Source: Deferrisomatales bacterium
Lineage (GTDB): Bacteria; Desulfobacterota; Deferrisomatia; Deferrisomatales; JARGFW01
Direction of reading: 5' to 3'
Assembly (NCBI GenBank): GCA_029211085.1
Contig: JARGFW010000003.1
Coordinates: 15,938 to 79,937, forward strand
Length of the DNA stretch: 64,000 bases
The notes under the pieces are model-generated. The model did not search any database. It was not told the DNA's origin and saw nothing but the letters and a program-made list of their open reading frames with translations. Of this stretch, positions 15,453-37,788 are shown piece after piece; the stretch's first letter is position 1, and every line of letters begins with the position of its first letter. The position numbers were made by a program, and so were the translations under genes.

Positions 15453-18400
15453 GTGCGTAAGCGGCTCCTGGGCTTGCTGAACCTTACCGAGAACGAGCTC
15501 GCCCTGTTCCTGTGGACCGCTGCCCTGCTGTTTTTCGTCAGGAGTTCGGGCATCGTCCTCAACAACTTCGCCGAGACGGTGTTCCTGCAGCGCTTCGGCG
15601 TGGAGTTCCTGCCCTACGTCAACATGGGCAACGCGGCGGCCACGTTCCTGTTGATGGGCTGGATGAGCGGGCTCCTCGGGCGCTTCTCCGCCGCACAGCT
15701 GCTCGAGAAAATGTTCTTTTTCTGCGGCATCTCGGTGGTGTTCTTGCGCCTCCTCATTCCCCTCGGCCTGACCTTCGTCTATCCGGTGTTCTTCATCCTC
15801 AAGGCCCAGTACGAGGTCCTGCTTGCCCTGTTGTTCTGGAATCTCGCCAATGACCTGTTCGACACCCGGCAGTCGAAACGCATCTTCCCCCTGGTCACGG
15901 CGGGGGGGGTGGTCGGGCAGATTCTCGGCAGCTTTCTCACGCCAGCGGCCGCGCGACTTCTCTCCCTGGACAACCTCGTCTATTTCTACCTGGCCATCGT
16001 GGTCGCGGGGGCCCTGACGACACTGGCGATGCGGCGGAAGCACCCATCCTCCGCGTTCATCGGGGAGAAGAAAGAGAGCAACGACAAAATTTCCATACTG
16101 GATGAAGTTCGAAACATCATCCCTATAATAAAAGAGTCTCACCTACTGAAGATCCTCATCGCGTTGACATTCATTCCCAACGTTCTCATACCCATACTGA
16201 ATTACCAATTCAATTTCGTTGTCGCGGACCGCTTTGCCTCTGAAAGTGGTATGTTGGATTTCCTGAGCAATTTCAGAGGTTATCTAAACATCGTCAGCCT
16301 ATTGATATTGCTTTTCGTCGGAAAGTTATACGGAAGATTCGGTCTACCGATCGCTTTGATGTTCCACCCAATCAACTACCTTCTTATCTTCGCCTCCCTG
16401 CTGCTCCGCTTCGACATCATCACGGCTTCATACGCGCGCCTGACAGCCAACATCGTCCGCACGACGATCAATGCGCCAGCGCTCGCCGTAGTCACCGGGA
16501 TGTTCCCGGAACGCTACCGGAATCAAGTGCGCCCGTTCCTGCGCGGGACGGTCGTGCGCGTCGGGATCGTGGGCAGCTCGGCCGTCATCCTGGCATCTGC
16601 CCCCTTGTTCCACCCCCGCTACCTGTCGCTGGTGGCCCTGCCATTTTGCCTCACGTGGATTGCCGCCTGTGTGTCCCTGAAGCGCAACTACGCGGCTCTG
16701 CTGCTGGGCATCGTGCGGGATGGCACCCTGGAGCTGAACTCCATGGAGGAGGATCGGGTCGCCGAGTATTTTCAGGACTCCCGGGTAAAAGACACCCTCG
16801 CCCAGAACCTGGCGCAGGCGAGCGAAGATACCAAGGTCTGGCATGCGGACCTGCTGCGCCGGGTGGACGCGGCGCGCGCCAGTATCCTGATCGCGGCAGT
16901 CCTGAAACGGGAGGACTCGGAGCAGACGTGCACCCGGCTCATCCATCTACTGGACTCGGACCCGGACGGCTCGGTGGTGGAGAAGCTCAAGACCCTGGTG
17001 GACCTCTCGCGCACCCGGCAGACCCGCGCGCTGCTCACCGCGTTGCGCCGCTTCGACCCAGCCAGTTCCCGAGAGGTCTGCGCGCACATCGAGACCCTGG
17101 AACCGCCCCTGTCGATCCGCGCGCACACCGTTGCGGATCTGTACGCAACCGATCCGCAGGCCTACGGCCGCACCGTAGACGCCTGGCTCCACTCTTCCCA
17201 GCGCCGGGAGCGGGCCGCCGGGGCCGTGGCTGCCGGCCTGATCGGCGCGGACTACGGCGACACCCTGCGCGGCATGCTCGACCGCGAGCAGGACCCTCGG
17301 GTCACGGCCAAACTTCTCCAGGCACTGCAGCAGATAGGGATGAGCGGGTTGAAACCCCTCGCCGAGCGGTTTCTCGATCACCCGAGCCCGGCGGTGCGCT
17401 TCTTCGCTCTGCAGGGGTACGGAGTGGGGGGAAGGAGCGACTTGCGCAAGGTCGTCTATATGTTCGCCGACCCGTCCAGCAGGGTGGCCGAACGGGCTCG
17501 GCAGAAGGTCAAGAGCGCTCCCAACCTCGACGCCCAGGATCTGTTCGCCCTGCTGGACCTGCCCCACAAGAAAGTGCGCAAAGGAATTCTCGCGCTACTG
17601 AAGTCGATCAACGTGGGCGAGATCGAGGTCATCCGCTTCGGCATGAAACAGGCGCGCACCGCGTATCAACGTCTGGCCGAGGCCAACGCCCTGGACCAGT
17701 TGCCAGATAGCCTGGAGCGCAACCTGCTCCAACGCCACCTGCTGACCCTCAAGGACGAAGCGGCGGAGACCCTGATCCGCGTCCTGCAGAGCCAGAACCG
17801 AGAGGTTGGGATGCGAACCCTGGCCAGGGGGCTGTTCACCGGGGACGAGCGCAGGAAGGCAAACAGCGTGGAGGCGATTTCACAACTCCTCGCCAAGCCG
17901 CTGCGCGAGGTGCTGGTGCCCATCCTGGACAGCACCGACAACGACGCGAAGCTGGCGGCAGGAAGGCGGCACTTCTCCCTGAAATACTACCGCCAAGAGA
18001 CCGACGCGTTGGTGTCGACGCTGTCGGTCAGCGAGGACTGCGTGACCTCCGCCCTCGCCTATTTCCTGTCGATGAAGGAGCACATCCCCATCGACCTGTC
18101 GGCGGCCGTGGATCTGGAACGCTTCGAGTCGGAACCCATCTGCAAGATCGCCCACTTCCTGTATCAGTCGGGCGCCGGCCCGAACACGGCAACGGAGTCC
18201 GCCATGAAGAACGCCCTGGGCCTTCCAGAAAAGATCTTCTTGCTGCAGAACGTATACGTCTTCCAAGGCATGTCCGTCGGCGACCTGGCGGCGGTCGCCG
18301 CAGTCGGCGAGGAGGTAGCGCTGCAGGCCGGACAGCGCGTCTTCGCCGAAGGCGAGTTCGCCGACAAGATGTTCATGGTGGCCACAGGCGCGGTGTCGCT

Positions 18401-18734
18401 GACGAAGCAGGTGGAGAACGGGGAGGCGGTTGAAGTGCGGAACCTCGGGAAAGGCGATCATTTCGGCGAGATCGCCCTATTCAACGACGACCCGCGCCTG
18501 GTCACCGCCACGGCGAGCACCGACACCCACCTACTGGTCTTGCACAAGGACGAACTGACCGAACTGATCCGTGAGTTTCCCCAGATCGGGCTGCACATCT
18601 GCCGCGCGTTCAGCAAGCAACTGCGCCAGGTTCTGAACCTGGTTGCCGAGCGCCACGGGCCCCGGGGGCTCTCCGACCTCATAAGCAAGGCCGGCGCCTT
18701 GTGTGGGTCACCCTCCACGGGCGACTTGAGCTGA
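15453..18734 (+). CDS. TLC/AAA-family transporter fused to HEAT-like repeats and a C-terminal cyclic-nucleotide-binding domain (paralogue 2)
   Basis: It lies in ORF 15243..18734. I place the start at GTG 15453 (VRKRLLGLL), with GGGGAG upstream, only 36 nt after the ABC ATPase gene. The N-terminal half is collinear with paralogue 1. HEAT-like repeats are present ([15 protein letters not shown]..., [14 protein letters not shown]). The C-terminus has a near-canonical cNMP cassette ([23 protein letters not shown]). Confidence 0.75.
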
Positions 18735-23256: not shown

Positions 23257-24399
23257 ATGGACATCGAGACCCGCCTAGCCCGCGTCGGCTTGGGCTCCGA
23301 CCCCGCCACCGGTGCCGTCAGCACCCCGATCCACCCGTCTTCCACCTACGCCCACCCGGGCCTGGGAGAGACCACCGGGTTCGACTACGCCCGCACCGGC
23401 AACCCCACCCGACAGGTTCTGGAACGGGCCCTGGCCGACCTGGAGGGCGGCGTGGCGGGGTTCGCGTTCGCCTCCGGCATGGCGGCCCTGACCACTTTCT
23501 TCCTGCTGTTTCGGCCGGGGGACCACGTGGTGGTGTCCGACGATCTGTACGGAGGCACCTACCGACTGCTCGAACAGGTGTTCCGCCGTTTCAACGTGCG
23601 GGCCAGCTACGCAGACCTCACCGATCGGGAGGCAGCGGCCACCGCGATCACGTCCGACACCCGGGCCTTGTTGCTGGAGACACCCAGTAACCCGCTGATG
23701 AAGGTGGCGGACCTCGTCGCCCTGGCAGACCTGTCTCGGAGCCGCGGCGTGCTGCTGGCGGTGGACAACACCTTCCTCACCCCCTACTACCAGCGCCCCC
23801 TGGAGCTCGGCGCCGACCTGGTGATCCACAGCGCCACCAAGTATCTGGGCGGCCACAACGACCTGTTGGCCGGGGTCCTGGTAGCGCGGGAGGCCGATCT
23901 GGCGCATCGGCTCGGGTTCCTGCACAACACCACCGGACCGGTGCTGCCGCCCCAGGACTCCTGGCTGCTGCTGCGCAGCCTCAAGACCCTGGGTGTGCGA
24001 CTCAAGCGGCAGTCGGAGAGTGCCGCGCATCTGGCCGGGTTCCTGCGGGAGCAGGCGTCGGTGACCCAGGTCTTCTACCCGGGGTTCGAGGACCATCCCG
24101 GACACCGGGTGATGCGGCGCCAAACCAGCGGCTTCGGCGGCATGCTCAGCTTCCGTCTCGCCGACCCGGAACGCGTGCCGGGGTTCCTGAAGGCCCTGCG
24201 CTGCGTCACCTTCGCCGAGAGCCTGGGCGGGGTGGAGACCCTGGTCACCGTGCCCAGCCGCCAGACCCACTGCGACATCCCTCCCCTGGTCCGGGAACGG
24301 ATGGGGGTCACCGACGACCTCTTGCGCCTGTCGGTGGGTCTGGAGGCTCCCCAAGACCTGATAAAAGATCTGGACCGGGCCCTGAAGGCCGCGCCCTAG
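23257..24399 (+). CDS. PLP-dependent Cys/Met-metabolism enzyme (cystathionine gamma-synthase / beta- or gamma-lyase family)
   Basis: It lies in ORF 23188..24399, starting at ATG 23257 (MDIETRLARVG). It has the PLP-lysine block HSATKYLGGHND and the family-typical blocks STPIHPSSTY and FESLGGVETL-like (FAESLGGVETLV). Confidence 0.85.
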   Translation: MDIETRLARVGLGSDPATGAVSTPIHPSSTYAHPGLGETTGFDYARTGNPTRQVLERALADLEGGVAGFAFASGMAALTTFFLLFRPGDHVVVSDDLYGGTYRLLEQVFRRFNVRASYADLTDREAAATAITSDTRALLLETPSNPLMKVADLVALADLSRSRGVLLAVDNTFLTPYYQRPLELGADLVIHSATKYLGGHNDLLAGVLVAREADLAHRLGFLHNTTGPVLPPQDSWLLLRSLKTLGVRLKRQSESAAHLAGFLREQASVTQVFYPGFEDHPGHRVMRRQTSGFGGMLSFRLADPERVPGFLKALRCVTFAESLGGVETLVTVPSRQTHCDIPPLVRERMGVTDDLLRLSVGLEAPQDLIKDLDRALKAAP

Positions 24400-24499
24400 G
24401 CGAAAGCCCGCAGCACTCCGCTACACCCCCGCGGGCCGGCGTGCGATGGCCTGCTGGCCGGGAGGGTCGGGTGCGGTGGCACAGGGGAAGCGGCGTGGC

Positions 24500-25090
24500 T
24501 CAGGACAGGGTCTTGCGACACCGCAGGGCGGCGACGCCCAGGGTGGTCGGGCCGAGCAGGGCCAGGCCCACCAGCTGGGGCCAGAGGATGTCGATCCCGA
24601 CCCCCTTGAGGAAGATGCCGTGAATGATCACCAGGAAGTAACGCAGGGGGTTCAGGTGGGTGACCCCCTGGATTGGTAACGGCATGTTCTGGATCGCTCC
24701 GTCCGCCGGCATGCCCGCTTTGAGCTCCCCCTCGGGGTTCGCAACCGTCACCGTCACCTTCACCCGGCAGACGAGCTTCACCCGCTCCCGCCGGGGTCTG
24801 GAGCGCCTTGGGGGTGAACTCCGCCGTAGAAGAGATAAAGGAGAAGCGGCCTGCATAGATCCTGCCCGGGTAGCTGTCTGTGGTGAGGTCCACCCGCTGC
24901 CCGAGCTACACGCGACCCAGGTGGGTCTCACGCACGTAGGCCCGCAGCCAGACCCTCGCCAGATCGCCCACGGTGACCTCGATGTACCCGGAAATGCGGA
25001 TCCGGCCCCCGGGCGCGCTGCCGCCGGCCCGCAGGAACAGGTGACCCCTGGCCCCCGATCCTGGTTCAGGCTGTGTCCGCGTGCCACTCT
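24500..25090 (-). pseudogene. Remnant of a HlyD-family membrane-fusion gene joined to the last ~60 codons of an ABC-2 permease gene (frameshifted, internally deleted)
   Basis: Three minus-strand frames carry consecutive HlyD-like pieces. The first is ...IEVTVGDLARVWLRAYVRETHLGRV, ending at 24906. The second is LTTDSYPGRIYAGRFSFISSTAEFTPKALQTP. The third is RVKLVCRVKVTVTVANPEGELKAGMPADGAI. The third piece runs straight into an ABC-2 permease C-terminus (NPLRYFLVIIHGIFLKGVGIDILWPQLVGLALLG...). Confidence 0.6.
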
Positions 25091-25195
25091 CCAGCATCAC
25101 AATTCCCGCCGCGCCACCCCTGCAACCCGGAAGCACACCGGCCGGACCCACGTACGTGGACCCGGCCGGGCAGCGGTTGGACCAACGGCTGAACC

Positions 25196-25570
25196 TCAAC
25201 CAGCGGCGAACACCACCTTGTTCAACACCTCGAGAACCTTCTCCTCCTCGAACGGCTTGAGAATGTAGTGTTTGGCTCCGGCCTTGGCGCACTCCACGAT
25301 CTTGTCCTTACCGGACATGGAGCTGACCATGATCACGGTGGCGTCGGGGTCGATCTTCTTCAGCAATACCAGGGTCTGAATGCCCCCCATCTGCGGCATC
25401 ACCAGATCCAGGGTGACGAAGTCGGGGCGGAACTCCTTGTACTTCTTCACCCCCTCCAGGCCGTTGGCGGCGGTGGCCACCACCTCACAGCCGTGCTTTT
25501 CCAGAATCTTCGACAACTCTTTCTGGATGTAGGGCGAGTCGTCCACCACCATTGCCCGTTTGGCCATCAT
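25196..25570 (-). CDS. Single-domain CheY-like response regulator
   Basis: The start is ATG 25570, with GAGGAGG upstream. Receiver residues are intact: VVDDS, phospho-acceptor TLDLVMP, VSS, KPF. Confidence 0.9.
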   Translation of the reverse strand: MMAKRAMVVDDSPYIQKELSKILEKHGCEVVATAANGLEGVKKYKEFRPDFVTLDLVMPQMGGIQTLVLLKKIDPDATVIMVSSMSGKDKIVECAKAGAKHYILKPFEEEKVLEVLNKVVFAAG

Positions 25571-25616
25571 CGTTCCTCCTCGGTCTCTATCCGCCACACA
25601 CCCGGCGAGCGCCGGG

Positions 25617-26099
25617 TCACGGGGTCTCCCGGGTCAGCGACACCACGACCGTGATCTCCCCCACGGTGGTCTCCAGGGGAATCTGCACGCTCTCTACTCC
25701 CCCATCGAAGCCGAAGCTCACCTCGGGCCCCAGAACCACGGTGGGGGGGGTGATCCCCTCCTGGATGCCCAGGTCGTATAGCAACCCGGTGGCGTTGCCC
25801 ACAATGGTGTTCGCCACCTCGGCCATGATCGCCCGCACATCGTCCTCACCCACCTCTTCGGGCGGGGCCTTGACGATCATCGCCGAAAGGGCCTCGGCCA
25901 CCGGCCGCGGGGCGGTGAAGATCACCGAGCCCGAGAGCCGCCCCTTGAGCCCGATGATGATGCTCAGGTGGTGGTCCACCGTGCTGCCCACACTCTGGCC
26001 CAGGCGGGACACCTTGCCCACCTTCACCTCCGTGCCCGCCATCTTTTGCAGCACCTGCACCGCGGGCACCAGGAACGCGTTGACGTGCTCTGCCTTCAT
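25617..26099 (-). CDS. CheX/CheC-like chemotaxis phosphatase family protein
   Basis: It lies in ORF 25617..26462, starting at ATG 26099 (MKAEHVNAFLVPAV), with GGAAGGAG upstream. It is about 160 aa with a CheX-like layout (..AEVANTIVGNA..). The upstream part of the ORF is Arg/Gly/Pro-rich shadow. Confidence 0.7.
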   Translation of the reverse strand: MKAEHVNAFLVPAVQVLQKMAGTEVKVGKVSRLGQSVGSTVDHHLSIIIGLKGRLSGSVIFTAPRPVAEALSAMIVKAPPEEVGEDDVRAIMAEVANTIVGNATGLLYDLGIQEGITPPTVVLGPEVSFGFDGGVESVQIPLETTVGEITVVVSLTRETP

Positions 26100-26128
26100 C
26101 GGGGCGCTCCTTCCCGGGAACGGGGCCA

Positions 26129-27847
26129 CTACTCCACCGCCTTGGTCACCCGGACGACTTCCTCCAGGGTGGTCTGCCCCGCCACCGCCTTGCGCAGCCC
26201 GTCGAAGCGCAGGTCGCGGAATCCCTTGCCGTACGCCACCCGGCGCAGCTGCGAGGTGCTCGCCTTCTCGATGATCAGCTCGCGAATCTCCTCGTCCACT
26301 TTGAGCACCTCGTGGATACCGGTCCGGCCCCGGTAGCCCGAACCGCTGCAGTAGCCGCACCCCTTGCCGCGGTAGAACGTCACCTGGCCGGCGATGTCCT
26401 GCACTCCGGCCTCGGCGATCTCGGCGGGCAGGGGCGTGTGGGGCGCCTTGCACTGGGGGCACACCCGACGCAGCAGGCGCTGGGCGAGGATGCCCAACAG
26501 GGTCGGCGCCAGCAGGAACGGCGCCACCCCCATCTCCATCAGTCGGGTGATCGAGCTGGGGGCGTCGTTGGTGTGCAGGGTGGACAGCACCAGGTGGCCG
26601 GTGAGTGCCGCCTCGGCGGCAATGGAGCCGGTCTCCGGGTCGCGGATCTCGCCCACCATGATGATGTCCGGGTCCTGGCGCAGAAACGCGCGCAAGGCAC
26701 CGGCGAACGTCAACCCCCGCTTCACGTTGACCGCCACCTGGTTGATCAGGGGGATCTGGTACTCCACCGGGTCCTCGACGGTGACGATGTTCCTCTCGAT
26801 CGAGTTGATGGAGTTGAGCGCCGCGTACAGGGTGGTTGACTTGCCGCTGCCCGTGGGGCCGGTGACCAGCACGATGCCGTTGGGCTGGCGCAGCAGGGAC
26901 TCGAACACCTCCAGGTTGTATTTGGAGAACCCCAGGTCGGTCAGCTCCACCCGCACGCTGCTGCGGTCGAGGATGCGCATGACCACCTTCTCGCCGTAGA
27001 CCACGGGCAGCACGCTGACGCGGAACTCCAGTTCCCGGTCCCCCATCTTGAGCTGTATGCGCCCGTCCTGGGGCCGCTGGCGCTCGGAGATGTCCAACGC
27101 CGAGAGGATCTTCACCCGGCTCGTCACCGCCGCCGAGAGTTGCATGGAGAACGCGAAGCGCTTCTGCATCACCCCATCGATGCGGAAGCGCACCAGCAGG
27201 TGGTCTTCGCCGGGCTCGATGTGGATGTCGCTGGCCCCCTCCCGCACCGCCAATTTGAGGATCTTGTCCACCATCTTGACGATGGGGGCCTCCTCACCGG
27301 CGGCCCGCAGGCTCTCGATGTCGGTCTTGCGCCCTCCCGAATCCACGTCCAGGGCGCCGAGGGTCACCAGGTCGTCGGAGGCCTCCTCTTCGTCGCCCCC
27401 CCCGTAATGGGAGGCGATGCTCTGCAGCACCTGGGTCTCGCTGACCAGCACCGGCTGCACCGGCCGTTTGAGCAGGCCGCTGACCACGTCCACTCCGTCG
27501 ATGCTGGTGGGATCGGAGACCGCCAGGGTGATCTCGTCGCCGATTGCGAACAGGGGCAGCAGTTTGTAGCGGCGGCAGATCTCCTCGGGCACCTGTGCCA
27601 GCAGATCTTCCTGGACCTCCACCTCCTCCAGATCCATCACCGCCAGGTTGAACTGGCGAGCCAGCACCCGCAGGCAGTCCTTCTCGTTGATGTAGCCGTG
27701 GCGCACCAGGTACTTGCCCACGGGCAGGCTGGTCAGGCCCTTGCGGTCCCGCTCGGTCAGCGCCTGCTCCAGTTCCTCCTCACTGAGCACCTGCTCCTCG
27801 ACCATCATCGACCCGAGGCGCCGCTCGACCTTGGTTATCTTGGCCAC
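26129..27847 (-). CDS. GspE/PilB/MshE-family secretion ATPase with T2SSE_N/MshEN-like N-terminal domain
   Basis: This 572-aa protein has a GTG start at 27847. It has Walker A GPTGSGKSTT, Asp/His boxes, and a tetra-Cys motif (CPQCK...CGYCSGSG). The N-terminus (RLGSMMVEEQVLSEEELEQAL...VGKYLVRHGYINEKDCLRVLARQ) resembles the MshEN c-di-GMP motif. Confidence 0.9.
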   Translation of the reverse strand: MAKITKVERRLGSMMVEEQVLSEEELEQALTERDRKGLTSLPVGKYLVRHGYINEKDCLRVLARQFNLAVMDLEEVEVQEDLLAQVPEEICRRYKLLPLFAIGDEITLAVSDPTSIDGVDVVSGLLKRPVQPVLVSETQVLQSIASHYGGGDEEEASDDLVTLGALDVDSGGRKTDIESLRAAGEEAPIVKMVDKILKLAVREGASDIHIEPGEDHLLVRFRIDGVMQKRFAFSMQLSAAVTSRVKILSALDISERQRPQDGRIQLKMGDRELEFRVSVLPVVYGEKVVMRILDRSSVRVELTDLGFSKYNLEVFESLLRQPNGIVLVTGPTGSGKSTTLYAALNSINSIERNIVTVEDPVEYQIPLINQVAVNVKRGLTFAGALRAFLRQDPDIIMVGEIRDPETGSIAAEAALTGHLVLSTLHTNDAPSSITRLMEMGVAPFLLAPTLLGILAQRLLRRVCPQCKAPHTPLPAEIAEAGVQDIAGQVTFYRGKGCGYCSGSGYRGRTGIHEVLKVDEEIRELIIEKASTSQLRRVAYGKGFRDLRFDGLRKAVAGQTTLEEVVRVTKAVE

Positions 27848-27850
27848 GGG

Positions 27851-28204
27851 TCAGTCTCCGAACAGGGAGTCGATGTCATCCTGCGACACCTTCACGTCCG
27901 CGTCCTGCTGCGCCACCTCCTCGGTCTCCCGGGCCGCTTCCAGCAGGTCGGCCATGCCGGCCATTGCGGGGCCGGCGTCCGGCGCCGGGGCGGGAACGGC
28001 GGGGGCGACCGGCCGAGCGGCGGACGGGCGGAGTTCCGGCCGGGGGGGAGCGTCGCCCAGGGGGCTGCCGCAACCGCCGCAGTAGTGGTCTGCCAGCCCG
28101 TTGCGGAAGCCACATCGGGGGCAGAACCGCACCAGCGGGCTGCCGCAGGCACCGCAGTAGTTGCGGCCGTCGGCACAGGGGTGTTTGCAGTGGGGACAGT
28201 TCAT
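27851..28204 (-). CDS. Double zinc-ribbon protein with Pro/Ala-rich linker and acidic C-terminal SQDDIDSLF peptide
   Basis: This 117-aa protein starts at ATG 28204, overlapping the upstream TGA (ATGA). Zinc-ribbon Cys pairs are CPHC..CGAC and CPRC..CGGC. The C-terminus is ...VKVSQDDIDSLFGD. Confidence 0.75.
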   Translation of the reverse strand: MNCPHCKHPCADGRNYCGACGSPLVRFCPRCGFRNGLADHYCGGCGSPLGDAPPRPELRPSAARPVAPAVPAPAPDAGPAMAGMADLLEAARETEEVAQQDADVKVSQDDIDSLFGD

Positions 28205-29166
28205 CGCTCGCTCACCATCACGCGGTTGCGCCCGGCCCGCTTCGCCCGGTACAGGGCGTCGTCCGCCAGGCGGATCAGATCGTCACCGCTCTCCACGGCG
28301 GGGTTGGGACAAGCCGAGACACCGATGCTCACCGTCATACTCACCTCGTGGCCGTCCACCAGCAGGGTCTTGTCTTCCACCCCGAGGCGCAGGCGGTGGG
28401 CAAACTCCGCGGCGCCTTCCAGGTCGGTCTCGGGTAACAGCATGCAGAACTCCTCGCCCCCGTAGCGGGCCGCGATGTCGGTGGTGCGCACCGCGTCGTG
28501 GATCAGCGCGCCCAGGCCCCGCAGCGCCTGGTCCCCCACCTGGTGGCCGAAGGTATCGTTGAGCCGCTTGAAGTGGTCGATGTCGAGCATCACCATGCCC
28601 AGGGGCGAGCCGTAGCGGTCGGTGCGTTCGAACTCCGTGCCCAGGGCCGCCATGAAGTAGCGGCGGTTGAACAGTTTGGTGAGGGCGTCGGTGGAGGAGA
28701 GCTCCTGGAGCAACTCGTTGGAGCGCCGCAGTTCGTCCTGCAGGGCCTTGATCTTGAGCTGCACCTTGATGCGGGCCAGCAGTTCCCCGGCATCGAACGG
28801 CTTGGTGACGTAGTCCGAGGCCCCCAGCTCCAGACCGCGGATCTTGGTCTCCACATCGGTCTTGCCGGTGACCAAGATCACCGGGATGTCCCGCAGTTCC
28901 TCCCGGGCGCGGATCAAGGCGAGGAACTTCAACCCGTCCACTCCGGGCATCACCAGGTCGCACAGGATCAGGTCCGGTGCTGCCTCCAGTACCCGTTTGT
29001 ACGCCTCGACGCCGTTTTCCGCTTCCCGGCAGGTGCCGAACACCCCCAGCCGCCCGGCCAGGCGCCGCACCTCCTGGCGCACGCTGACCGCGTCATCGAC
29101 GATGAGCAGGGAGAAGTCGCGCCGCCCCAGCAGCCCGAGGCGGTCGGCCGCCTCGTCGTCTCTCAC
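28201..29166 (-). CDS. Response regulator-diguanylate cyclase (REC-GGDEF)
   Basis: It lies in ORF 28201..30051. I place the start at GTG 29166, overlapping the upstream TGA (GTGA). The REC domain has [19 protein letters not shown]. The GGDEF active site GGEEF is present, with an RxxD I-site (RTTD) 5 residues upstream. Confidence 0.9.
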
Positions 29167-29960
29167 CGGTGCGGTGCCGGCAGCCACAGGGGAAGTTGCG
29201 TCGTGGTCCACGGTTCGGTTCCTTCCAGCGTTTCCACGGCTGTGCCCGGCGGCACCTCCAACCGCAGCGCAGCGGCGGGCAGGGTGTCGGTCGGCGTGAC
29301 CTGGCGAAACTCCAAGCGGTAGCCGGGCGCTCCGTAGCCCGGCTGCACGGCGATGGCCCCGGGGAACGGCTGCCCGTCCACCGCCATGTACTCTCCCAGT
29401 TCCACTTCCAACTCGGCGACCCCCGCCCGGCTGAACACGGCCCGCCGGGGCACCTGGGCACCCGCGGCGAACTCCACCTCCTCGAGCCAGTCCCCGCGGC
29501 CGGATAGCTGCAACACTTCCGCGCCGTCTGCCAGCCGCCGGGCCTCCCGGGCCTTCCCCATCACCGGCAGCCGGCCCCGGGTCAGGTCCAACAGCCACGG
29601 CCCCCAGGTCCCCGCGGGATCCACCAACACCCGGCGCTGCTCGGGCAGGTAGATACGGCAAGCGCCCCCGACGGTGCACGCCACCGACAGCAGCGGCCGG
29701 GAAAACGCCCCGCTCACCGCGTCCAGACGCAGCCCCTGGCCAACCACAGCGGTGGCCCCGAACACCGCGCTGCCGCGCCCCTCGAGCCGCAACCGCCCCT
29801 GCACTCGGGCCCCCGCAGGAGCCCCGTTGTACTCGGACAGGACGGCGGCGAGCCGTGCCGGCGGAATCGGCGCCCCGTCCCCGGCGCGCTCCAGGCCTCG
29901 CGGCGCACACCCCGGCCCGACCAGCACCAACGCCAACAGCAGGCCCGCCCCCAGCCTCAC
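29163..29960 (-). CDS. Exported protein / possible lipoprotein of unknown function
   Basis: This 265-aa protein has a GTG start at 29960 that overlaps the upstream TGA (GTGA). The N-terminus is MRLGAGLLLALVLVGPGC, a hydrophobic signal with a weak lipobox. I recognise no catalytic motif. Confidence 0.6.
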   Translation of the reverse strand: MRLGAGLLLALVLVGPGCAPRGLERAGDGAPIPPARLAAVLSEYNGAPAGARVQGRLRLEGRGSAVFGATAVVGQGLRLDAVSGAFSRPLLSVACTVGGACRIYLPEQRRVLVDPAGTWGPWLLDLTRGRLPVMGKAREARRLADGAEVLQLSGRGDWLEEVEFAAGAQVPRRAVFSRAGVAELEVELGEYMAVDGQPFPGAIAVQPGYGAPGYRLEFRQVTPTDTLPAAALRLEVPPGTAVETLEGTEPWTTTQLPLWLPAPHR

Positions 29961-31603
29961 TGCAGTTGCTCCGCCTTCTCCCGGGCCGAGCCGGTGTCGG
30001 GGGAGATCTCCAGGGTCTTCCGGTACGCCTCCAGGGCCTGTTGCGGCTCACCCCACTTCACCAGGGCGTCTCCCAGATGCTCCCAGATCACCGGATCCTT
30101 GGGGGCAATCTCCACCGCCCGGCGCAGGGTGGTCACGGCCTCTTCGAAGCGCCCCTGTTTGAAGTACACCCACCCCAGGCTGTCGGTGATGAACCCGTCC
30201 TGGGGGCGCAACTCCAGGGCCCGCAGGATCAACCCCTCCGCCTCCTCCAGGTACACCCCCTGGTCGGCGTAGGTGTAACCCAGGTAGTTGAGGGCGTGGG
30301 CATCGTCGGGCCGCAGCGCCAGCGAACGCTTCATGTATTCGGCACTGGTGCGCCAATCCTTTAGCTTGTCGTGGAGCACCCCGAGGGTGAAGAACACCCG
30401 GGCGTTGTCCACCTCGCCCCGGGCCACGTAGGCTTCCAGCAGCTCGACCGCGGCGCGGTAGTCCCCGGCGTTCTCATGCAGCCCGGCCAGGGCCAGGAGC
30501 ACCTCCTCGTCCTGGGGGGCCTCGGCCAACCGGGCCTCCAGCAGGGCCCGGGCCTCGGCGCCCCGCTGCAGGCTGCCCAGGGCGATGGCGCGGCGCACCA
30601 GGGCGTCGGAGTACTGGGCGTCATCCGGACCGATGCGGGCGAACACCTCTATGGCCTCGGCGTACTCCTCCTGGGCCAGCAGGCTGACCCCCAGCAGATA
30701 GAGGGCCTGGCTGTCGTCTTGGTGCCCCTCGGCCATGGTGCGGAACACCTTCTCGGCCTCCCCGGGGCGGTCGAACTGCAGCAGCAACACCCCGAGGCGG
30801 AAGCGCAGCCCGGGGTCGCCACCGCTCCAGCGCTCGGCCGCCTCGAACACCTGCACCGCCTCGTCCACCGCGCCTTCGCGCAGCAGTACCTGGCCCAGGC
30901 GCAGGCGCGCCTCCACGCTGTGGGGGTTGACCTCGATCACCCGCCGGTACAACGCCTCGGCTGCCGCCAGGTTGCCTGCTTCCTCCTCCAGCGCCGCGAG
31001 GGCACGCAACCCGGAGCGGTGGTTGGGGGCCAGCTCCAGGGCCCGGCGCAAGCGCTCGCGGCCCTGCTCGGTGTTTCCCTGCTGCGCCAACAGACGGCCC
31101 CAGGTGAACTGGGCCTCGGGGCTGTCCGGCACCTGCTCGGCCCAAGCGGCAGCCTGTGCCAGGGCCTCCCCCGGGCGCTCCAACCGCTCCAGCAGGTGCA
31201 CCGCGAGCGCCTGGGCCTCACTGCCCGCCCCCCGGGTGGCCGCCTCCCGCGCCGGTTCCAGGGCCTCGGCGGGACGCTCCAGCAGCTCCAGCAGGCGCGC
31301 CTGGAGCAGCAGCAACTCGGCACTTTGGGGCCGCAGCACCAACCCCTCCTCCACGGTGCCCAGGGCGGCAGTGTAGTCCCTGCGCCCGCCCAACAGGCGG
31401 GCGAGCTCGGTGCGGATCACCTCAGAGGCCGGGTCGGCCTCCAGCGCTTCGCGCAGGGACTGCAGGGTCTGCTCCAGATCCCCCGCGCGCTGGGCCAGGT
31501 AGGCGCGCAGCAGGGGTTCGACCGCAGACGCCAGGCTGGCTGGCGACGGGCACGGGGCCAGCAGCGCGGCGAACACGACCAACGGCAGGACACAGCGGCG
31601 CAT
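29957..31603 (-). CDS. Tetratricopeptide-repeat (TPR) protein with signal peptide
   Basis: It lies in ORF 29957..32680. The start at ATG 31603 (MRRCVLPLVVFAALLAPC) shares one nt with the mutS stop (TGATG). It has many TPR units (..ALNYLGYTYADQGVYLEEAEGLILRALELRPQD..). The upstream part of the ORF is antisense-frame shadow inside mutS. Confidence 0.85.
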   Translation of the reverse strand: MRRCVLPLVVFAALLAPCPSPASLASAVEPLLRAYLAQRAGDLEQTLQSLREALEADPASEVIRTELARLLGGRRDYTAALGTVEEGLVLRPQSAELLLLQARLLELLERPAEALEPAREAATRGAGSEAQALAVHLLERLERPGEALAQAAAWAEQVPDSPEAQFTWGRLLAQQGNTEQGRERLRRALELAPNHRSGLRALAALEEEAGNLAAAEALYRRVIEVNPHSVEARLRLGQVLLREGAVDEAVQVFEAAERWSGGDPGLRFRLGVLLLQFDRPGEAEKVFRTMAEGHQDDSQALYLLGVSLLAQEEYAEAIEVFARIGPDDAQYSDALVRRAIALGSLQRGAEARALLEARLAEAPQDEEVLLALAGLHENAGDYRAAVELLEAYVARGEVDNARVFFTLGVLHDKLKDWRTSAEYMKRSLALRPDDAHALNYLGYTYADQGVYLEEAEGLILRALELRPQDGFITDSLGWVYFKQGRFEEAVTTLRRAVEIAPKDPVIWEHLGDALVKWGEPQQALEAYRKTLEISPDTGSAREKAEQLQ

Positions 31604-34248
31604 CAGCGATCCTCCTGGGGGGCCAGCAGATCCCGGGCACGGCGGCGCAACTGCTCCAGGCGCACCAGCGCTTCCACCGGGGTGAGGGTTTCCAGATCCT
31701 GTCCGGCAAGTTCCGCCACCAAGCGCTCCTGGGCGCGGTTGACCGGGGCGCTGAACAGGTCGAGCTGGCGCAGGGGCAGTTCCGGCGGCACCCGCTCCGA
31801 CACCGACAGGCGGGGGCGCCCGATCTCGTCGAGCTCCTCGGCCTCCAGGTTGGCCAGCACCTCCCGGGCGCGCTCGATCACCGTGTCGGGCAGCCCCGCC
31901 AGCCGCGCCACCTGGATGCCGTAGGAGCGGCTCACGCCCCCCTCCACCAACCGCCGCAGGAAGATCACCTGCCCCTCCCACTCCTTCACGGCCACGTTGT
32001 AGTTGGCCACCCCCCGCAGGGTGCGAGCCAGGTCGGTAAGTTCGTGGTAGTGGGTGGCGAACAGGGTGCGGGAGCCCACATGGTGGATGTACTCGGCCAC
32101 CGCCCAGGCGATGGAGAGGCCGTCGAAGGTCGACGTGCCCCGGCCGATCTCGTCCAGGATCACCACGCTGCGCGGGGTGGCGTTGTGCAGGATGTTTGCC
32201 GCCTCGGTCATCTCCACCATGAACGTGGAGCGCCCCCGGGCCAGATCGTCGGAGGCCCCCACCCGGGTGAAGATGCGGTCGGCGACACCGATCCGGACCC
32301 GCTCCGCGGGCACGAACGAGCCCATCTGCGCCATCAGTACGATCAGGGCCGTCTGGCGCAGGATGGTGGACTTGCCCGCCATGTTGGGCCCGGTGATGAT
32401 CAGCAACTGGCCCGATTCCGGCCCCATGCGCACGTCGTTGGGCACGAAGCGCTCCCCGGACAGGCTCGCCTCCACCACCGGGTGGCGCCCGCCGACGATC
32501 TCCACCGCGGCCCCCTCGTCCACCGCCGGCCGCACATAGCCCCTCTCCACCGCCAGATCGGCCAGGGCACACAGCACGTCCAGGGTCGCCAGGGCGTCCG
32601 CCCGGCGATCCAGGGCGTCCAGGTGCTCGGCAATCTGCCGGCGCACCGCCACGAAACGCTCGTACTCGAGGACCCGGCAACGATCCTCGGCGCCCAGCAC
32701 CTTGGCCTCCATCTCCTTGAGCTCCGGGGTGACGTAGCGCTCCGCGTTGGCCAGGGTCTGGCGGCGCTGGTAGCGCTCCGGTACCGCCGCCAGGTGCGCA
32801 CGGGTCACCTCCAGGTAGTAGCCGAACACCTTGTTGAAGCCGATCTTCAGGGACCCGATGCCGGTGGCTTCGCGCTCGGCCGCCTGCAGCCCGGCGATCC
32901 AGCCGCGGCCGTCGCGCTGGATCATCCGCAGTTCGTCGATCTCCGGGTCGAAGCCGTCCCGGATCACCCCCCCCTCGGTGAGCACCACCGGGGGATCCTC
33001 GGCCAGCGCCCGCCGCAGCAGGTCAGCCACCTCGGGAAGGGGCTCCAGGGCCCGGGCCAGTTCCCCCAGCACCGCGGCCTCGGCGCCTTCGAGGGCCGTT
33101 GCCAGGTGGGGCAGGACCTCCACCGACTGGCCCAGGGCGCGCAGGTCGCGGCCGTTGGCGGTGGACATCGCCACCTTGCCGACCAACCGCTCCAGGTCGT
33201 GCACCACCCGGAGCTGGTCCCGGAGCCGGCGCCGGGTCTCCCCACGCCGCACCAGCTCCCCCACCCCGTCCAGGCGCCCCTCGATGCGCCCTGGATCCCG
33301 TAGGGGATAGGCCAGCCAGCGCCGCAGACAGCGCCCACCCATGGCGGTGCGGGCCCGGTCCATGAGGTGGAGCAGGGTGCCCTCCCGGCGACCGCCGGAA
33401 AGGGTCTGGAACAGTTCCAGGTTGCGCTTGGTGGTGTCGTCCAGGGTCAGGGTGCCGTCGCGGGAGTGGCGGTGCAGGCGACGCAGGTTGGCCAGCCCGC
33501 TGGGGTAGTTGGCCTGCACGTAGGCGAACACGGCGCCGGCGGCGCGTGCCCCCTCCGGCAGATCGTCGGTGCCGAACGCCGCCAGATCAGGCACCTCGAA
33601 GTGCTCGCACAGCGCCCGGCGACCGGTGCGGGCATGAAACGCCGCGGCGCGAAACGGGGTGGGGGCGGGCCCGGGCAGGAACACGCCCGCGGGCACAGGC
33701 GCGGCATCCTCTGCCACCAGCACCTCCCGGGGCTCCAGGCGCGCCAACTCCTCGGCCAGCTGCTGCCAGCCGTTCACCTCACCCAGACGGAACTCCCCGG
33801 TGGTCACATCGGCGTAGGCGAACCCCAGCACGTGCCGCCCCGGGGCCACGGCCAGCAGGTACTGGGACGTTCGGGCCTCGATCATCTCGGTGTCGGTGAC
33901 CAGACCGGGGGTGACCACCTGCACCACCGCGCGGCGCACCAACCCCTTGGCCTGCCCCGCTTCCTCCACCTGGTCGCAGATCGCCACCTTGTGGCCCGCC
34001 GTCACCAGGCGGCCGATGTAGCCCCGGGAGGCGTGCCACGGCACCCCGCACATGGGCACCGCGTTCTCCCCCTTGTCGCGGCTGGTGAGCGTTATCTCCA
34101 GCACCCGGGAGGCGACCTCGGCGTCCTCGAAGAACATCTCATAGAAGTCCCCGAGGCGGAACATGAGGATGCAGTCGGGATGCTCCTGCTTGATCTCCAG
34201 ATACTGACGCATCATCGGCGTCAGCTTGGGGGGGGTCGCTTCGGACAT
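31603..34248 (-). CDS. mutS: DNA mismatch repair protein MutS
   Basis: This 881-aa protein starts TPMMRQYLEIKQEHPDCILMFRLGDFYEMFFEDA. It has Walker A GPNMAGKST and the blocks DEIGRGTSTFDG and THYHEL. Confidence 0.97.
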   Translation of the reverse strand: MSEATPPKLTPMMRQYLEIKQEHPDCILMFRLGDFYEMFFEDAEVASRVLEITLTSRDKGENAVPMCGVPWHASRGYIGRLVTAGHKVAICDQVEEAGQAKGLVRRAVVQVVTPGLVTDTEMIEARTSQYLLAVAPGRHVLGFAYADVTTGEFRLGEVNGWQQLAEELARLEPREVLVAEDAAPVPAGVFLPGPAPTPFRAAAFHARTGRRALCEHFEVPDLAAFGTDDLPEGARAAGAVFAYVQANYPSGLANLRRLHRHSRDGTLTLDDTTKRNLELFQTLSGGRREGTLLHLMDRARTAMGGRCLRRWLAYPLRDPGRIEGRLDGVGELVRRGETRRRLRDQLRVVHDLERLVGKVAMSTANGRDLRALGQSVEVLPHLATALEGAEAAVLGELARALEPLPEVADLLRRALAEDPPVVLTEGGVIRDGFDPEIDELRMIQRDGRGWIAGLQAAEREATGIGSLKIGFNKVFGYYLEVTRAHLAAVPERYQRRQTLANAERYVTPELKEMEAKVLGAEDRCRVLEYERFVAVRRQIAEHLDALDRRADALATLDVLCALADLAVERGYVRPAVDEGAAVEIVGGRHPVVEASLSGERFVPNDVRMGPESGQLLIITGPNMAGKSTILRQTALIVLMAQMGSFVPAERVRIGVADRIFTRVGASDDLARGRSTFMVEMTEAANILHNATPRSVVILDEIGRGTSTFDGLSIAWAVAEYIHHVGSRTLFATHYHELTDLARTLRGVANYNVAVKEWEGQVIFLRRLVEGGVSRSYGIQVARLAGLPDTVIERAREVLANLEAEELDEIGRPRLSVSERVPPELPLRQLDLFSAPVNRAQERLVAELAGQDLETLTPVEALVRLEQLRRRARDLLAPQEDR

Positions 34249-34372
34249 GGACTCGGCTCGGGGCGGGCGGGCTCAGCCGCCCGGCGGGGTGGGCCTGTCA
34301 CCCCGCCGCGGGCTCGGGGCTCGGGGCGGAGGGCCGGGACAGCAGAGGAGAGGACGGCCCTCTCGGGCGGTG

Positions 34373-34777
34373 CTACAGGGTGGGTTCGTCATCCCGGATT
34401 GCGGGGGCCTCGATTCGCGGCTGTGCCCCCGCGGCCGGCTCGGCGGCTGGAGGCGGCCTGAGTTCGGCCAGTTGGGACCGCAGGGTGTCGGTCTCGGCCT
34501 CCAGGGTGCGGATGCGCTTGTTGCGCCGGCGGATCTCGGTCTTGCGGGCGATGCGCTCGTAGATGCCGTGGAAACCGGCGGCGAGGAGCCCCAGCAGGAA
34601 GAACACCCCATAGAGCAGCACCACCGGGAACTCGGGAGTCTGCCACTGGTAACCCTCGGCGTACAAGTCGAACACGAAGTGGGTCTTGGTGCTGAGGATC
34701 TCGGCATTCTGGTAGCCCAACAGCACCAACAGCAGCACCGCGACCGCGAACACGACTTTCTTCAGTAGCGACAGCAT
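34373..34777 (-). CDS. LapA-family (DUF1049-like) inner-membrane protein
   Basis: This 134-aa protein has two transmembrane helices followed by a basic coiled segment (RKTEIRRRNKRIRTLEAETDTLRSQLAEL), the architecture of LapA/YciS. Confidence 0.6.
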   Translation of the reverse strand: MLSLLKKVVFAVAVLLLVLLGYQNAEILSTKTHFVFDLYAEGYQWQTPEFPVVLLYGVFFLLGLLAAGFHGIYERIARKTEIRRRNKRIRTLEAETDTLRSQLAELRPPPAAEPAAGAQPRIEAPAIRDDEPTL

Positions 34778-34926
34778 GCCCCACTCCCCTCATTGCATCG
34801 TTGACCGGGCCGGCGCCAGCCAACCGGGTGTCGACGTCTCGTGGCATTGTACCCGGGCCGGCGGGCTGCGTCACCCGCGGCTTCGTGCAACCCCGGCAGG
34901 CAGGTCCCGGAGTCTCCGCGACCACT

Positions 34927-36237: not shown

Positions 36238-37788
36238 TCACCCATCCGGAACCGGATCGCCCGCCCCCGGCGGCACCCGCACGGTACGGTCTCCGGCCAC
36301 CAACACCTGGCCGGGGGAGGCACCCTTGGGTTTGCGCAGCCGGGCGATCTCGGCCACCTGCACTTCCACCGCGCCGTCCGCCGCACGACTGCTGAACCGG
36401 GCCGCCAGGCCGGCGGCCTCGGTGAGGGTGCGCTCGGGCACCCGGGAATCCCGGCCGGGTTTACGGATCACCACATGGGCACCGGCAGCGTCGCGGACGT
36501 GGAGCCACAGGTCCCAGGGCTTGGATTCCCGCACCAACCGCTCGTTCTCGGCACCGTTGCGCCCCACCCGGAGGCTCCAGCCGTCGGAGGAGCGGAAGCG
36601 GCGGTAGGGGCCGGTGGATTCCGCCCGTCCCTCGGCTGCCTGCCGTTCCTGGGTCTCGGCCGGGCCGGCGGCCAACTCCCGTTCGGAGGCGGAAAGTCGC
36701 GCCTCCAGGGCCTGCCGGGTGCGTTCCCGCTTGCGGGCCAGGAGGTAGAGCTGGTTCAGATTCCTCCCGGGGGAGAGGCCGGGATCCAGGGGGAGGTCGT
36801 GGACGACGCCGGGGATGCGGAGGTCCGGCGCTTGCACCGAACGCTGCCCGGCCTCCACCTGCCACAACACGGCTCCCAGGGCGTCGGCCCGGTCACGGGC
36901 TTCGGCGGGGTCGGGAAGGTTCGCCAGATCGGCGCGGATGTTCGCCAGACGGCGCTGGAGCCGCCTCTCGAAGCGGGAGTAGGCCTTTTCCGCCGAGGAC
37001 TCCTGGGCGCGGTGTGCGACACCCGCTGCGTCGGCGAGCAGGTGCTCGCCGGCCGCCTCCAGCAGGTCGGTCCGCGCCGTTCCCCGATCGGGTTGGCAGG
37101 TGAGCCGCGCCGCGCTCAGCTGGTCCCCAACCCGCCACAGGGGCCCCGGCCCGGAACACTCCTCGAGCACGCCGCACCACGCCCCCCAGGGTTCGCCGGC
37201 GGCGGCGCGGTGGGCCACCTCCCGGCCCAGGGCGGCACCCAGGCCCAGTACACGGCGGTGCAGTGGCTCCCCCGCGGCCAGCCAGGTTACCAGATCCCGC
37301 TCCCCCACGGCGTCCGGCAAGGGGCGGTCCGCGGGGAGTTCCGGCCGCACGTAGGTGTTCCCGGCGGCACCCCACCCGCCTCCGGCAGCAGCGGCCCGCA
37401 CGACCCCAGCGGCGTCTACGGCAACGATGCGCCCCGCCCGCGGAAGGGCCTCCAACACCACCCGACAGGCGGAGTCGGGCGATCCGAGTTCCAGCTCCAC
37501 GACGCGCTGTCCGGCGACCACCCGCACTGCCCGCAGGGTGCCGTGGCCGTGAGCTCTCAGATACGCCGCCAGCGCGGTTGGGCGCTGGGGACAGGGTGGG
37601 CGCCTGGGCACCAGCCCCAGACCGGCACTGGCGCCGTTGGCCCCGAGCAGGAGCAGGCCGTTGCGCCCCCTCTGGCGGAGTTTGAGGACGAGTCGGCCTT
37701 CCCGGTCCTCCCACGCCCCCTGCAGCCACGCCCCGGCCCAGTCCCGTTCCAGGACACCGGCGAGGCGGGCGAGGACGAAGGAGTCCAC
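36238..37788 (-). CDS. NFACT-family protein (FbpA/RqcH-like, N-terminal NFACT-N plus C-terminal DUF814/NFACT-R)
   Basis: This protein is 516 aa. The C-terminus (YRRFRSSDGWSLRVGRNGAENERLV...DLWLHVRDAAGAHVVIR) matches the DUF814 pattern. In the N-terminal domain, the position aligned by eye with the Bacillus DR motif reads QR. Confidence 0.7.
   Translation of the reverse strand: MDSFVLARLAGVLERDWAGAWLQGAWEDREGRLVLKLRQRGRNGLLLLGANGASAGLGLVPRRPPCPQRPTALAAYLRAHGHGTLRAVRVVAGQRVVELELGSPDSACRVVLEALPRAGRIVAVDAAGVVRAAAAGGGWGAAGNTYVRPELPADRPLPDAVGERDLVTWLAAGEPLHRRVLGLGAALGREVAHRAAAGEPWGAWCGVLEECSGPGPLWRVGDQLSAARLTCQPDRGTARTDLLEAAGEHLLADAAGVAHRAQESSAEKAYSRFERRLQRRLANIRADLANLPDPAEARDRADALGAVLWQVEAGQRSVQAPDLRIPGVVHDLPLDPGLSPGRNLNQLYLLARKRERTRQALEARLSASERELAAGPAETQERQAAEGRAESTGPYRRFRSSDGWSLRVGRNGAENERLVRESKPWDLWLHVRDAAGAHVVIRKPGRDSRVPERTLTEAAGLAARFSSRAADGAVEVQVAEIARLRKPKGASPGQVLVAGDRTVRVPPGAGDPVPDG

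Follow-up and report, generated by a model that had tools for sequence, protein, structure and literature searches.

A double-zinc-ribbon protein with a FliM/CheZ-like terminal peptide accompanies a PilB/MshE-like ATPase and CheY in Deferrisomatales and other bacteria

We analysed 64,000 nucleotides of a Deferrisomatales bacterium (assembly GCA_029211085.1, contig JARGFW010000003.1, positions 15,938 to 79,937; this whole stretch is hereafter the window), in which a minus-strand chain of eight genes, established from the open reading frame (ORF) listing and by direct reading of the strand, encodes MutS, a TPR protein, a lipoprotein, a REC-GGDEF diguanylate cyclase, a double-zinc-ribbon (DZR) protein, a PilB/MshE-like ATPase, a CheX-type phosphatase and CheY. 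A first-pass annotation of this DNA had centred on the ATPase and had missed the significance of the zinc-ribbon protein, which is the most informative part of the chain: it ends in a short peptide that we propose to be a docking site for phosphorylated CheY (CheY-P), and its gene is found together with those of the ATPase and CheY across phyla. We describe a widespread DZR-ATPase-CheY module that is new to the literature searched. In the searchable literature, the coverage of which is incomplete so that this is absence of evidence, we found no described zinc-ribbon/PilB/CheY module, adaptor family or peptide of this kind, including in a review of PilB cofactors and a survey of Geobacter che genes. 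The signalling part of the chain comprises the following features.

28201-29166, minus strand: REC-GGDEF diguanylate cyclase, 321 aa
27851-28204, minus strand: double-zinc-ribbon (DZR) protein, 117 aa
27860-27889, minus strand: DZR C-terminal peptide VSQDDIDSLF, residues 106-115, with GD and the stop codon after it
26129-27847, minus strand: PilB/MshE-like hexameric ATPase, 572 aa
27653-27820, minus strand: MshEN_N motif pair predicted to bind cyclic di-GMP (c-di-GMP), ATPase residues 10-65
25617-26099, minus strand: CheX-type CheY-P phosphatase, 160 aa
25196-25570, minus strand: CheY, single-domain receiver, 124 aa

The zinc-ribbon protein and its C-terminal peptide

The Pfam DZR domain spans residues 3-46 of the 117-aa protein. 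In an AlphaFold2 (AF2) model, residues 1-50 have a predicted local distance difference test (pLDDT) score of 92-94, residues 56-61 and 75-79 fall below 50, and helices are predicted at residues 80-100 and 108-115, giving a layout of zinc ribbons (1-50), a disordered linker, the helix 80-100 and a short helix over the terminal motif. Relatives were collected first by homology and then with a profile run against 1.84 billion cluster representatives, which returned 14,439 matches at E ≤ 1e-3 and 1,272 representatives at E ≤ 1e-10; their database names are uninformative, a cluster look-up yielding only "hypothetical protein". Zinc ribbons and C-terminal peptide were both present in 179 of the 187 small family members inspected, the peptide lying mostly 0-5 and usually 2-4 residues from the end of the protein and following the consensus [RK]-[VI]-[ST]-Q-D-[DE]-[IL]-D-x-L-F-G. 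Within these 179 proteins the aspartate at +4 is kept in 169, the leucine at +6 in 163 and the phenylalanine at +7 in 175.

The N-terminus of FliM and the C-terminus of CheZ are the two classic docking peptides for CheY-P. Escherichia coli FliM begins MGDSILSQAEIDALLNG, with SILSQAEIDALL as the N-terminal peptide, and E. coli CheZ ends VVASQDQVDDLLDSLGF, with ASQDQVDDLL as the C-terminal one. The DZR tail fits the pattern S-Q-x-x-[IV]-D-x-L-[LF] of FliM and CheZ and, like them, is terminal and flexibly tethered, as judged from the linker and short helix of the AF2 model. One regular expression run over 784,430 six-frame residues matched the DZR tails (a single time in each locus), the start of E. 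coli FliM and the end of E. coli CheZ, and nothing else. All are short, acidic and amphipathic segments at a protein terminus behind a flexible linker, and can be written as hydrophobic-S-Q-x-[DEQ]-[IV]-D-x-L-[LF]; moreover, the DZR gene adjoins cheY and, in many loci, also the gene of a CheY-P phosphatase. CheY-P binds the EIDAL(L) motif at the N-terminus of FliM in the groove that separates its helices alpha4 and alpha5 (PMC6946799; PMC9126983), and we propose that the DZR terminal peptide is likewise a CheY-P docking peptide. It differs from the known examples in its carrier, which is a small double-zinc-ribbon protein instead of a flagellar switch protein or a phosphatase, and in that its docking is a prediction.

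In many members of the family the terminal motif is preceded, at a distance of about 24-27 residues, by a second helix of acidic-hydrophobic character (in the window, in the region 27905-27934), for example LAELLEAA, ELDGLF or AELDELF, which looks like a weaker copy of that motif. A beta-clamp-binding motif was considered for the terminal peptide and rejected, since QL[SD]LF is spaced differently from Q-x-x-[IL]-D-x-L-F. Among the longer family matches, which were inspected for Rosetta-stone fusions of a receiver with a DZR domain, P0190 seems to be neighbouring cheY and DZR genes run together by a frameshift, not a true fusion, and was left unused. The PADLOC models of anti-phage systems gave no meaningful match for the DZR protein, the ATPase, the lipoprotein or the TPR protein.

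The core module across phyla

The next-best homologues of the window ATPase are 50-55 % identical to it and belong mostly to Nitrospirota and Thermodesulfovibrionia. Five Nitrospirota loci (L011-L015) retain the core of DZR, ATPase and CheY, with CheX in L015, amid unrelated housekeeping genes (an isocitrate/isopropylmalate-type dehydrogenase, glucokinase, hyp genes, PmbA/TldD); near the module in these Nitrospirota loci we found none of mutS, the TPR, lipoprotein and GGDEF genes, or pilus genes. The core was also found in soil metagenomes among unrelated genes, and a metagenome scan with the DZR profile yielded 11 loci, in all of which the DZR gene adjoins a CheY gene, an ATPase gene or both. 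Two layouts recur: DZR-ATPase-(CheX)-CheY, which we call type A, and CheY-DZR-ATPase followed by a CheX-like ORF (L026, L028), which we call type B. The CheX-like ORFs of L026 and L028 are unconfirmed candidates in the same position, that of L028 being devoid of a Pfam match. In L028 (3233-7100) two kinase genes come after the module, the first CheA-like, with Hpt and HATPase_c domains, and the second for a Ser/Thr protein kinase. In L027, a CheA-like C-terminus (read from the translation), CheY, DZR and CheX are encoded in a row with no ATPase gene adjacent, a layout that ties the DZR protein to CheY and not only to the ATPase. Judged from these gene neighbourhoods, the evolutionary unit is made up of DZR, CheY and a PilB/MshE-type ATPase, with CheX as an option, and it spans phyla.

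The ATPase of the window matches Pfam T2SSE with 458 bits and MshEN with 69 bits, and its domains follow the order MshEN_N, N1/N2 and an ATPase domain with a tetracysteine site. Walker A (GPTGSGKST, residue 330), Walker B (DPDIIMVGEIRD, 392), the His box (TGHLVLSTLHTNDA, 416) and the tetracysteine (CPQC, 463; CGYC, 497) are all kept. Its best solved relatives are the PilB proteins of Myxococcus xanthus and Geobacter, to which it aligns end to end with about 500 bits. It falls below the equivalog cutoffs of both PilB (TIGR02538, 630.5 versus 675.65) and GspE (TIGR02533, 585.6 versus 630.25), and no gsp genes are present in the window. In an identity matrix, in which the L028 ATPase was taken from a corrected ORF and the L004 ATPase row was left out, the DZR-linked ATPases are 51-59 % identical to one another across phyla and 38-42 % identical to the pilus-linked homologues L003 and L006. 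These two served as controls: at 41-42 % identity, L003 adjoins a T2SSF platform gene and L006 a pilin gene. No pilus or secretion gene stands beside the ATPase in the window or in about 20 related loci, and PilC, PilT and PilMNOPQ genes were found neither in the window nor beside the module in L008, L010, L011, L013, L014 and L015. The scan of genome contigs with the window ATPase yielded two close and five distant loci.

The MshEN domain is composed of a tandem pair of motifs, each 24 residues long and of the form RLGxx(L/V/I)(L/V/I)xxG(L/V/I)(L/V/I)xxxxLxxxLxxQ, separated by a 5-residue spacer (PMC5013675). The second motif of the window ATPase has a C at one hydrophobic position. The Gly of the first motif is retained in most relatives, and the other type A ATPases reach 49.6-64.6 bits with the MshEN model NF053729, all above its cutoff; the type B protein examined fails this model. 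Together with the neighbouring genes, these patterns indicate that the constant partners of DZR are CheY and the ATPase, and that c-di-GMP sensing and CheX are frequent options.

CheY of the window shares 33 % identity with E. coli CheY and keeps the equivalents of D12, D13, D57, Y106 and K109, with Ser in place of T87, so that the receiver residues attributed to it by the first-pass annotation are indeed present. Its best matches among PDB sequences are chemotaxis CheYs at 108-115 bits (among them Thermotoga maritima 4iga and 1tmy, and archaeal proteins, at about 114 bits), and Spo0F-type receivers reach about 60 bits; by sequence comparison the CheY of the module belongs with the chemotaxis proteins, although it stays below the NCBIfam equivalogs (104.4 versus 200 for CheY_Halo and 54.2 versus 189 for the E. 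coli type). CheX matches its Pfam family (PF13690) with 58.6 bits against a cutoff of 27 and aligns to T. maritima CheX (1squ), an E-x-x-N motif (AEVAN) standing in the place of the GELGN active-site motif; it too is below an equivalog, that of Thermotogales CheX (60.4 versus 280). Besides L015, a CheX gene is found in L027, and in L018 as an ORF that aligns to the window CheX.

The diguanylate cyclase (Pfam Response_reg 97 bits, GGDEF 162.8 bits) joins a phospho-acceptor receiver to a GGDEF domain in which, as had been claimed, the GGEEF site (residue 236) and the RxxD I-site (RTTD, residue 227, five residues before GGEEF) are intact. In its receiver, GG(D/E)EF motif and I-site spacing it corresponds to cyclases of the PleD/WspR type; it scores below the PleD equivalog (266.9 bits versus 474) and has one receiver domain, not two. 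Its gene accompanies the module in L002, L008, L010 and L018 and does not stand beside it in L011-L015 or L019-L028, a distribution by which the cyclase is a Deferrisomatales-specific addition to the module.

In two loci from metagenome-assembled genomes (MAGs) of Verrucomicrobia (L004, 9341-11581; L005, 5128-7361) we observed a receiver gene, an ORF of about 67 aa and a gene for a PilB-like ATPase (42 % identity). This small ORF, which contains EILDQMEISQIFT, has neither zinc ribbons nor the DZR motif and may encode a different small adaptor in a like layout.

Gene order and envelope genes in Deferrisomatales

Upstream of the signalling block, the chain contains three further genes, and it is followed by a hairpin.

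31603-34248, minus strand: mutS, 881 aa, first in the chain; DNA mismatch repair, outside the signalling module
29957-31603, minus strand: TPR protein, 548 aa, its N-terminus a hydrophobic signal or anchor
29163-29960, minus strand: lipoprotein (the "exported protein" of the first-pass annotation), 265 aa, LolA/LolB fold
25138-25169, minus strand: GC-rich hairpin, 27 nt past the cheY stop codon, with a 14-bp stem in the minimum-free-energy fold

The ORFs together with Pfam and NCBIfam searches bore out the eight genes and all domain calls of the first-pass annotation, and reading of the sequence gave its seven junctions as described: TGATG at mutS/TPR, GTGA at TPR/lipoprotein and again at lipoprotein/REC-GGDEF, ATGA at REC-GGDEF/DZR, and gaps of 3 nt between DZR and ATPase, 29 nt between ATPase and CheX and 46 nt between CheX and CheY. 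These stop/start overlaps suggest translational coupling along the chain. No sigma-70-like promoter site was found inside the chain, such as would have split mutS from the genes downstream, and no terminator-like site on its coding strand; the sole promoter-like site of the region (34846-34874) lies upstream of a gene for a LapA-domain membrane protein (34373-34777, minus strand), itself located 124 nt upstream of mutS. The hairpin behind cheY is the strongest inverted repeat in 24300-34400, a clear U tract being absent, and it probably marks the end of the transcription unit by acting as a terminator. The absence from the window of platform (T2SSF), pilin (N_methyl), secretin, CheA, CheW and methyl-accepting chemotaxis protein (MCP) genes, also claimed previously, held when 40 more predicted genes, which take in most of the window, were searched with Pfam. 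An Rfam search over the whole window returned no RNA family and hence no c-di-GMP riboswitch.

The complete order from mutS to cheY is kept in L002 (a groundwater MAG), L008 (Deferrisoma palaeochoriense) and L010 (a MAG), and the metagenome contig L018, which begins within the TPR gene, keeps it from there to cheY. The proteins of these four other Deferrisomatales loci are 38-86 % identical to those of the window, and the 4-nt overlaps at mutS/TPR, TPR/lipoprotein and GGDEF/DZR are preserved along with a gap of 3-5 nt before the ATPase gene. The arrangement described by the first-pass annotation is thus conserved within Deferrisomatales down to its overlaps, whereas outside this order the core alone survives. 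In particular, mutS precedes the TPR gene only in L002, L008 and L010, all of them Deferrisomatales, and was not found beside the module in the Nitrospirota and metagenome loci outside the order.

MutS exceeds the equivalog cutoffs of NF003810 (1066.6 bits versus 480) and TIGR01070 (995.7 versus 641.7), and its five Pfam domains (I-V) place it with the MutS1 mismatch repair proteins. Near its C-terminus it bears the pentapeptide QLDLF (residues 828-832; 31753-31767, minus strand), which we take to be a candidate beta-clamp-binding-type motif. With the LapA-like gene upstream and the TPR and LolB-fold genes downstream, mutS sits among envelope genes. Its coupling to the signalling genes, previously called unusual and unexplained, amounts to lineage-specific synteny that is missing outside Deferrisomatales and gives no sign of a functional tie; on the evidence of gene order, the association is one of synteny and should not be taken for a regulatory tie of mismatch repair to signalling.

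The TPR protein has multiple TPR matches in Pfam, with no NCBIfam equivalog above its cutoff, and its gene is kept only in the Deferrisomatales loci L002, L008, L010 and L018. The 265-aa protein encoded next has a lipoprotein-type N-terminus (...LVGPGC). It had no match in Pfam (E ≤ 1), NCBIfam or the PDB sequences, and only eight homologues were found; its fold was recognised via structure prediction and Foldseek. The AF2 model (pLDDT 81.9, predicted template-modelling score 0.79) has Porphyromonas gingivalis LolB (9tpm) as its top Foldseek match (E 4.7e-8, template-modelling scores 0.63/0.70), and nearly all of the 52 matches at E ≤ 0.001 are LolA or LolB. By its lipoprotein signal and the open beta-barrel fold of the model, the protein fits the LolB/LolA superfamily, and because of this fold the TPR protein and the lipoprotein look like an envelope pair, probably one of envelope biogenesis. 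Outside Deferrisomatales, no copy of the module has either gene. The earlier description of a seven-gene signalling operon consequently does not hold: the "exported protein" has a LolA/LolB fold, and neither it nor the TPR protein accompanies the module elsewhere. We conclude that the chain is a conserved Deferrisomatales operon in three blocks, namely mutS, the envelope pair and a five-gene signalling block.

Some side observations concern other parts of the window. Between 24396 and 25090 (minus strand), short ORF pieces in differing frames read like two C-terminal ends, one resembling an HlyD-type adaptor (SFISSTAEFTPK) and the other an ABC-2 permease (NPLRYFLVIIHGIFLKGVGIDILWPQ), neither with a Pfam match; this may be the deletion scar of a transporter operon. 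Further away are genes for a DUF4388 protein (42593-43276, plus strand), an NFACT-domain protein (36238-37788, minus strand) and a 1093-aa fusion of a TLC-type transporter-like protein with a cyclic-nucleotide-binding domain (15453-18734, plus strand).

A proposed CheY-P adaptor and its alternatives

The reading we favour, with somewhat more confidence than doubt, is that the DZR protein is an adaptor that links CheY-P to the ATPase, that CheX resets this switch and that c-di-GMP enters through the MshEN domain; we infer all of its binding steps and its output. CheY would be phosphorylated by a kinase encoded elsewhere, or in some relatives by the CheA-like Hpt kinase of the same locus. CheY-P would then dock on the C-terminal peptide of DZR as it does on the FliM N-terminus and the CheZ C-terminus, with the zinc-ribbon head remaining on the ATPase, so that the phosphorylation state would set the activity or the recruitment of the ATPase until CheX dephosphorylates CheY-P and resets the switch. 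The second input would be c-di-GMP bound by the MshEN domain of the ATPase, supplied in Deferrisomatales by the phospho-activated REC-GGDEF cyclase of the same operon. The idea of the first-pass annotation that c-di-GMP and CheY inputs converge on the ATPase is therefore plausible, and its description of the ATPase as detached is borne out to the extent that no pilus or secretion gene adjoins it here or in the related loci. That it is free of any machine finds no support: a published survey reports for Deferrisoma camini a full type IVa pilus (T4aP) cluster that follows the Cystobacterineae arrangement, ribF lying downstream of its pilB (PMC6060248). Because the D. camini pilB is a separate gene next to ribF and the window gene is flanked by DZR and cheX, the window ATPase is probably an additional paralogue. 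The likeliest output would be a T4aP machine encoded elsewhere, for which the ATPase may be a second, signal-gated motor.

Parts of this scheme have parallels in known systems. The archaellum ATPase belongs to the same secretion/pilus superfamily as the window ATPase. In archaea, CheY-P acts via the dedicated adaptor CheF on the ATPase-driven archaellum (PMC9126983); CheF forms a dimer with PH domains, and it contacts CheY close to where CheY is phosphorylated, not via an EIDAL-type peptide. The two adaptors are related neither in sequence nor in fold, and the system of the window is bacterial and has an added c-di-GMP input. In Xanthomonas and Pseudomonas, the small adaptor PilZ connects PilB, the ATPase of pilus extension, with the signalling protein FimX, which has a receiver-type domain, again with a c-di-GMP input (PMC11656802); that adaptor, however, has the PilZ fold, the receiver of FimX is degenerate and non-phosphorylatable, c-di-GMP is sensed via EAL, and no CheY, CheX or zinc ribbon is involved. 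MshE of Vibrio cholerae and PilB of M. xanthus share the domain order of the window ATPase, which passes the c-di-GMP motif model by a small margin (PMC5013675) and deviates at one conserved Gly; MshE and PilB are encoded in or used by pilus clusters, whereas the window-type ATPase always has DZR and cheY at its sides and pilus genes never. Finally, the Pil-Chp system, of the Tfp class of chemosensory systems, controls a pilus by a Che-type phosphorelay with the CheY-like outputs PilG and PilH (PMC11656802), and a CheA-like Hpt kinase is encoded in type B loci. PilG and PilH act through other partners; in our module no MCP or CheW was seen and the output is wired to the ATPase gene via an adaptor of the same operon.

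Several observations weigh against the adaptor proposal. A profile of the terminal motif searched against PDB sequences recovered neither FliM nor CheZ and gave chance matches at E above 1; since the peptide is too short for a significant profile match, its likeness to them rests on a pattern, and it ends in L-F-G where FliM and CheZ have L-L. The window ATPase passes the MshEN model NF053729 barely, at 41.6 bits against a cutoff of 38, and in its first MshEN motif a Gln takes the place of the expected Gly, Ala or Ser, the spacer that follows having 8 residues, not 5. That the DZR-linked ATPases cluster is read from a small matrix of identities and a rough neighbour-joining tree, and it is in D. 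camini, not in the organism of the window, that a separate T4aP cluster is on record. No kinase for CheY or REC-GGDEF is encoded in the window, and it is from their packing that we infer the eight genes to form one transcription unit.

The failed profile match and the L-F-G-x ending at the extreme C-terminus, unlike FliM, would equally suit a peptide that binds the ATPase (at N1/MshEN) or another partner, or one that is a degradation or localisation tag, with CheY acting directly on the ATPase. CheY-like regulators have been reported to bind PilB directly in cyanobacteria, and the second helix about 25 residues upstream could be a site for CheY or for the ATPase. We nevertheless think this unlikely, given that the motif is unchanged in type B loci, whose ATPase lacks the MshEN motif, that it persists in L027 with CheA, CheY and CheX adjacent and no ATPase gene, and that the pattern matches the two established docking peptides for CheY-P specifically. 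Less probable still is that the ATPase is simply the usual type IV pilus or type II secretion motor of the organism, with its partners encoded elsewhere and the zinc-ribbon protein and CheY as incidental neighbours. Its full-length alignment to PilB structures at about 500 bits, its score close to the PilB cutoff and its intact catalytic and zinc motifs would all be expected of such a motor, and pilus genes are scattered in many bacteria (PMC6060248). Incidental neighbours would not be expected, however, to remain adjacent across phyla in two gene orders, as DZR, ATPase and CheY do; the canonical pilB of D. camini lies by ribF in the pil cluster and not between DZR and cheX; and the DZR-linked ATPases are closer to one another across phyla than to pilus-linked ones.

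An opposite variant of the adaptor proposal, to which we give as little credence as to the ordinary motor, would have CheY-P switch, via the adaptor with its FliM-like peptide, an ATPase acting independently of any pilus or secretion platform, as a stand-alone remodelling or assembly motor and an unrecognised chemosensory output. We regard as the least probable the model of the first-pass annotation as a whole, in which the seven genes after mutS form a self-contained c-di-GMP/CheY machine with a freed ATPase and a tie to mismatch repair. The eight genes overlap or are separated by at most 46 nt without an internal promoter or terminator match, their order is conserved in Deferrisomatales, and platform and pilin genes are missing from the window and from the surroundings of related modules, all as that model would have it. 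Yet mutS and the TPR, lipoprotein and GGDEF genes never stand beside the module outside Deferrisomatales, the LolA/LolB fold of the "exported protein" points to envelope biogenesis, the LapA-domain gene on the other side of mutS leaves mutS among envelope genes, and a complete T4aP system such as that of D. camini could be served by the ATPase.

The association of mutS with the module is best taken as lineage-specific gene packing, and it gives no ground for assuming regulation between mismatch repair and signalling. If the DZR peptide does bind CheY-P, the docking peptide of FliM and CheZ would have been re-used on a small portable adaptor that brings chemotaxis-type phosphorylation to a pilus-type motor ATPase, and DZR would be a third class of CheY-P target bearing such a peptide; should the ATPase work on its own, the module would be to bacteria what the CheY-CheF-archaellum link is to archaea. 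In either case a function is suggested for an unannotated family whose sequence clusters, over 1,000 in number, carry no label beyond "hypothetical" or "zinc ribbon", and the module offers a simple system in which c-di-GMP and phosphorylation would be integrated on one hexameric ATPase.

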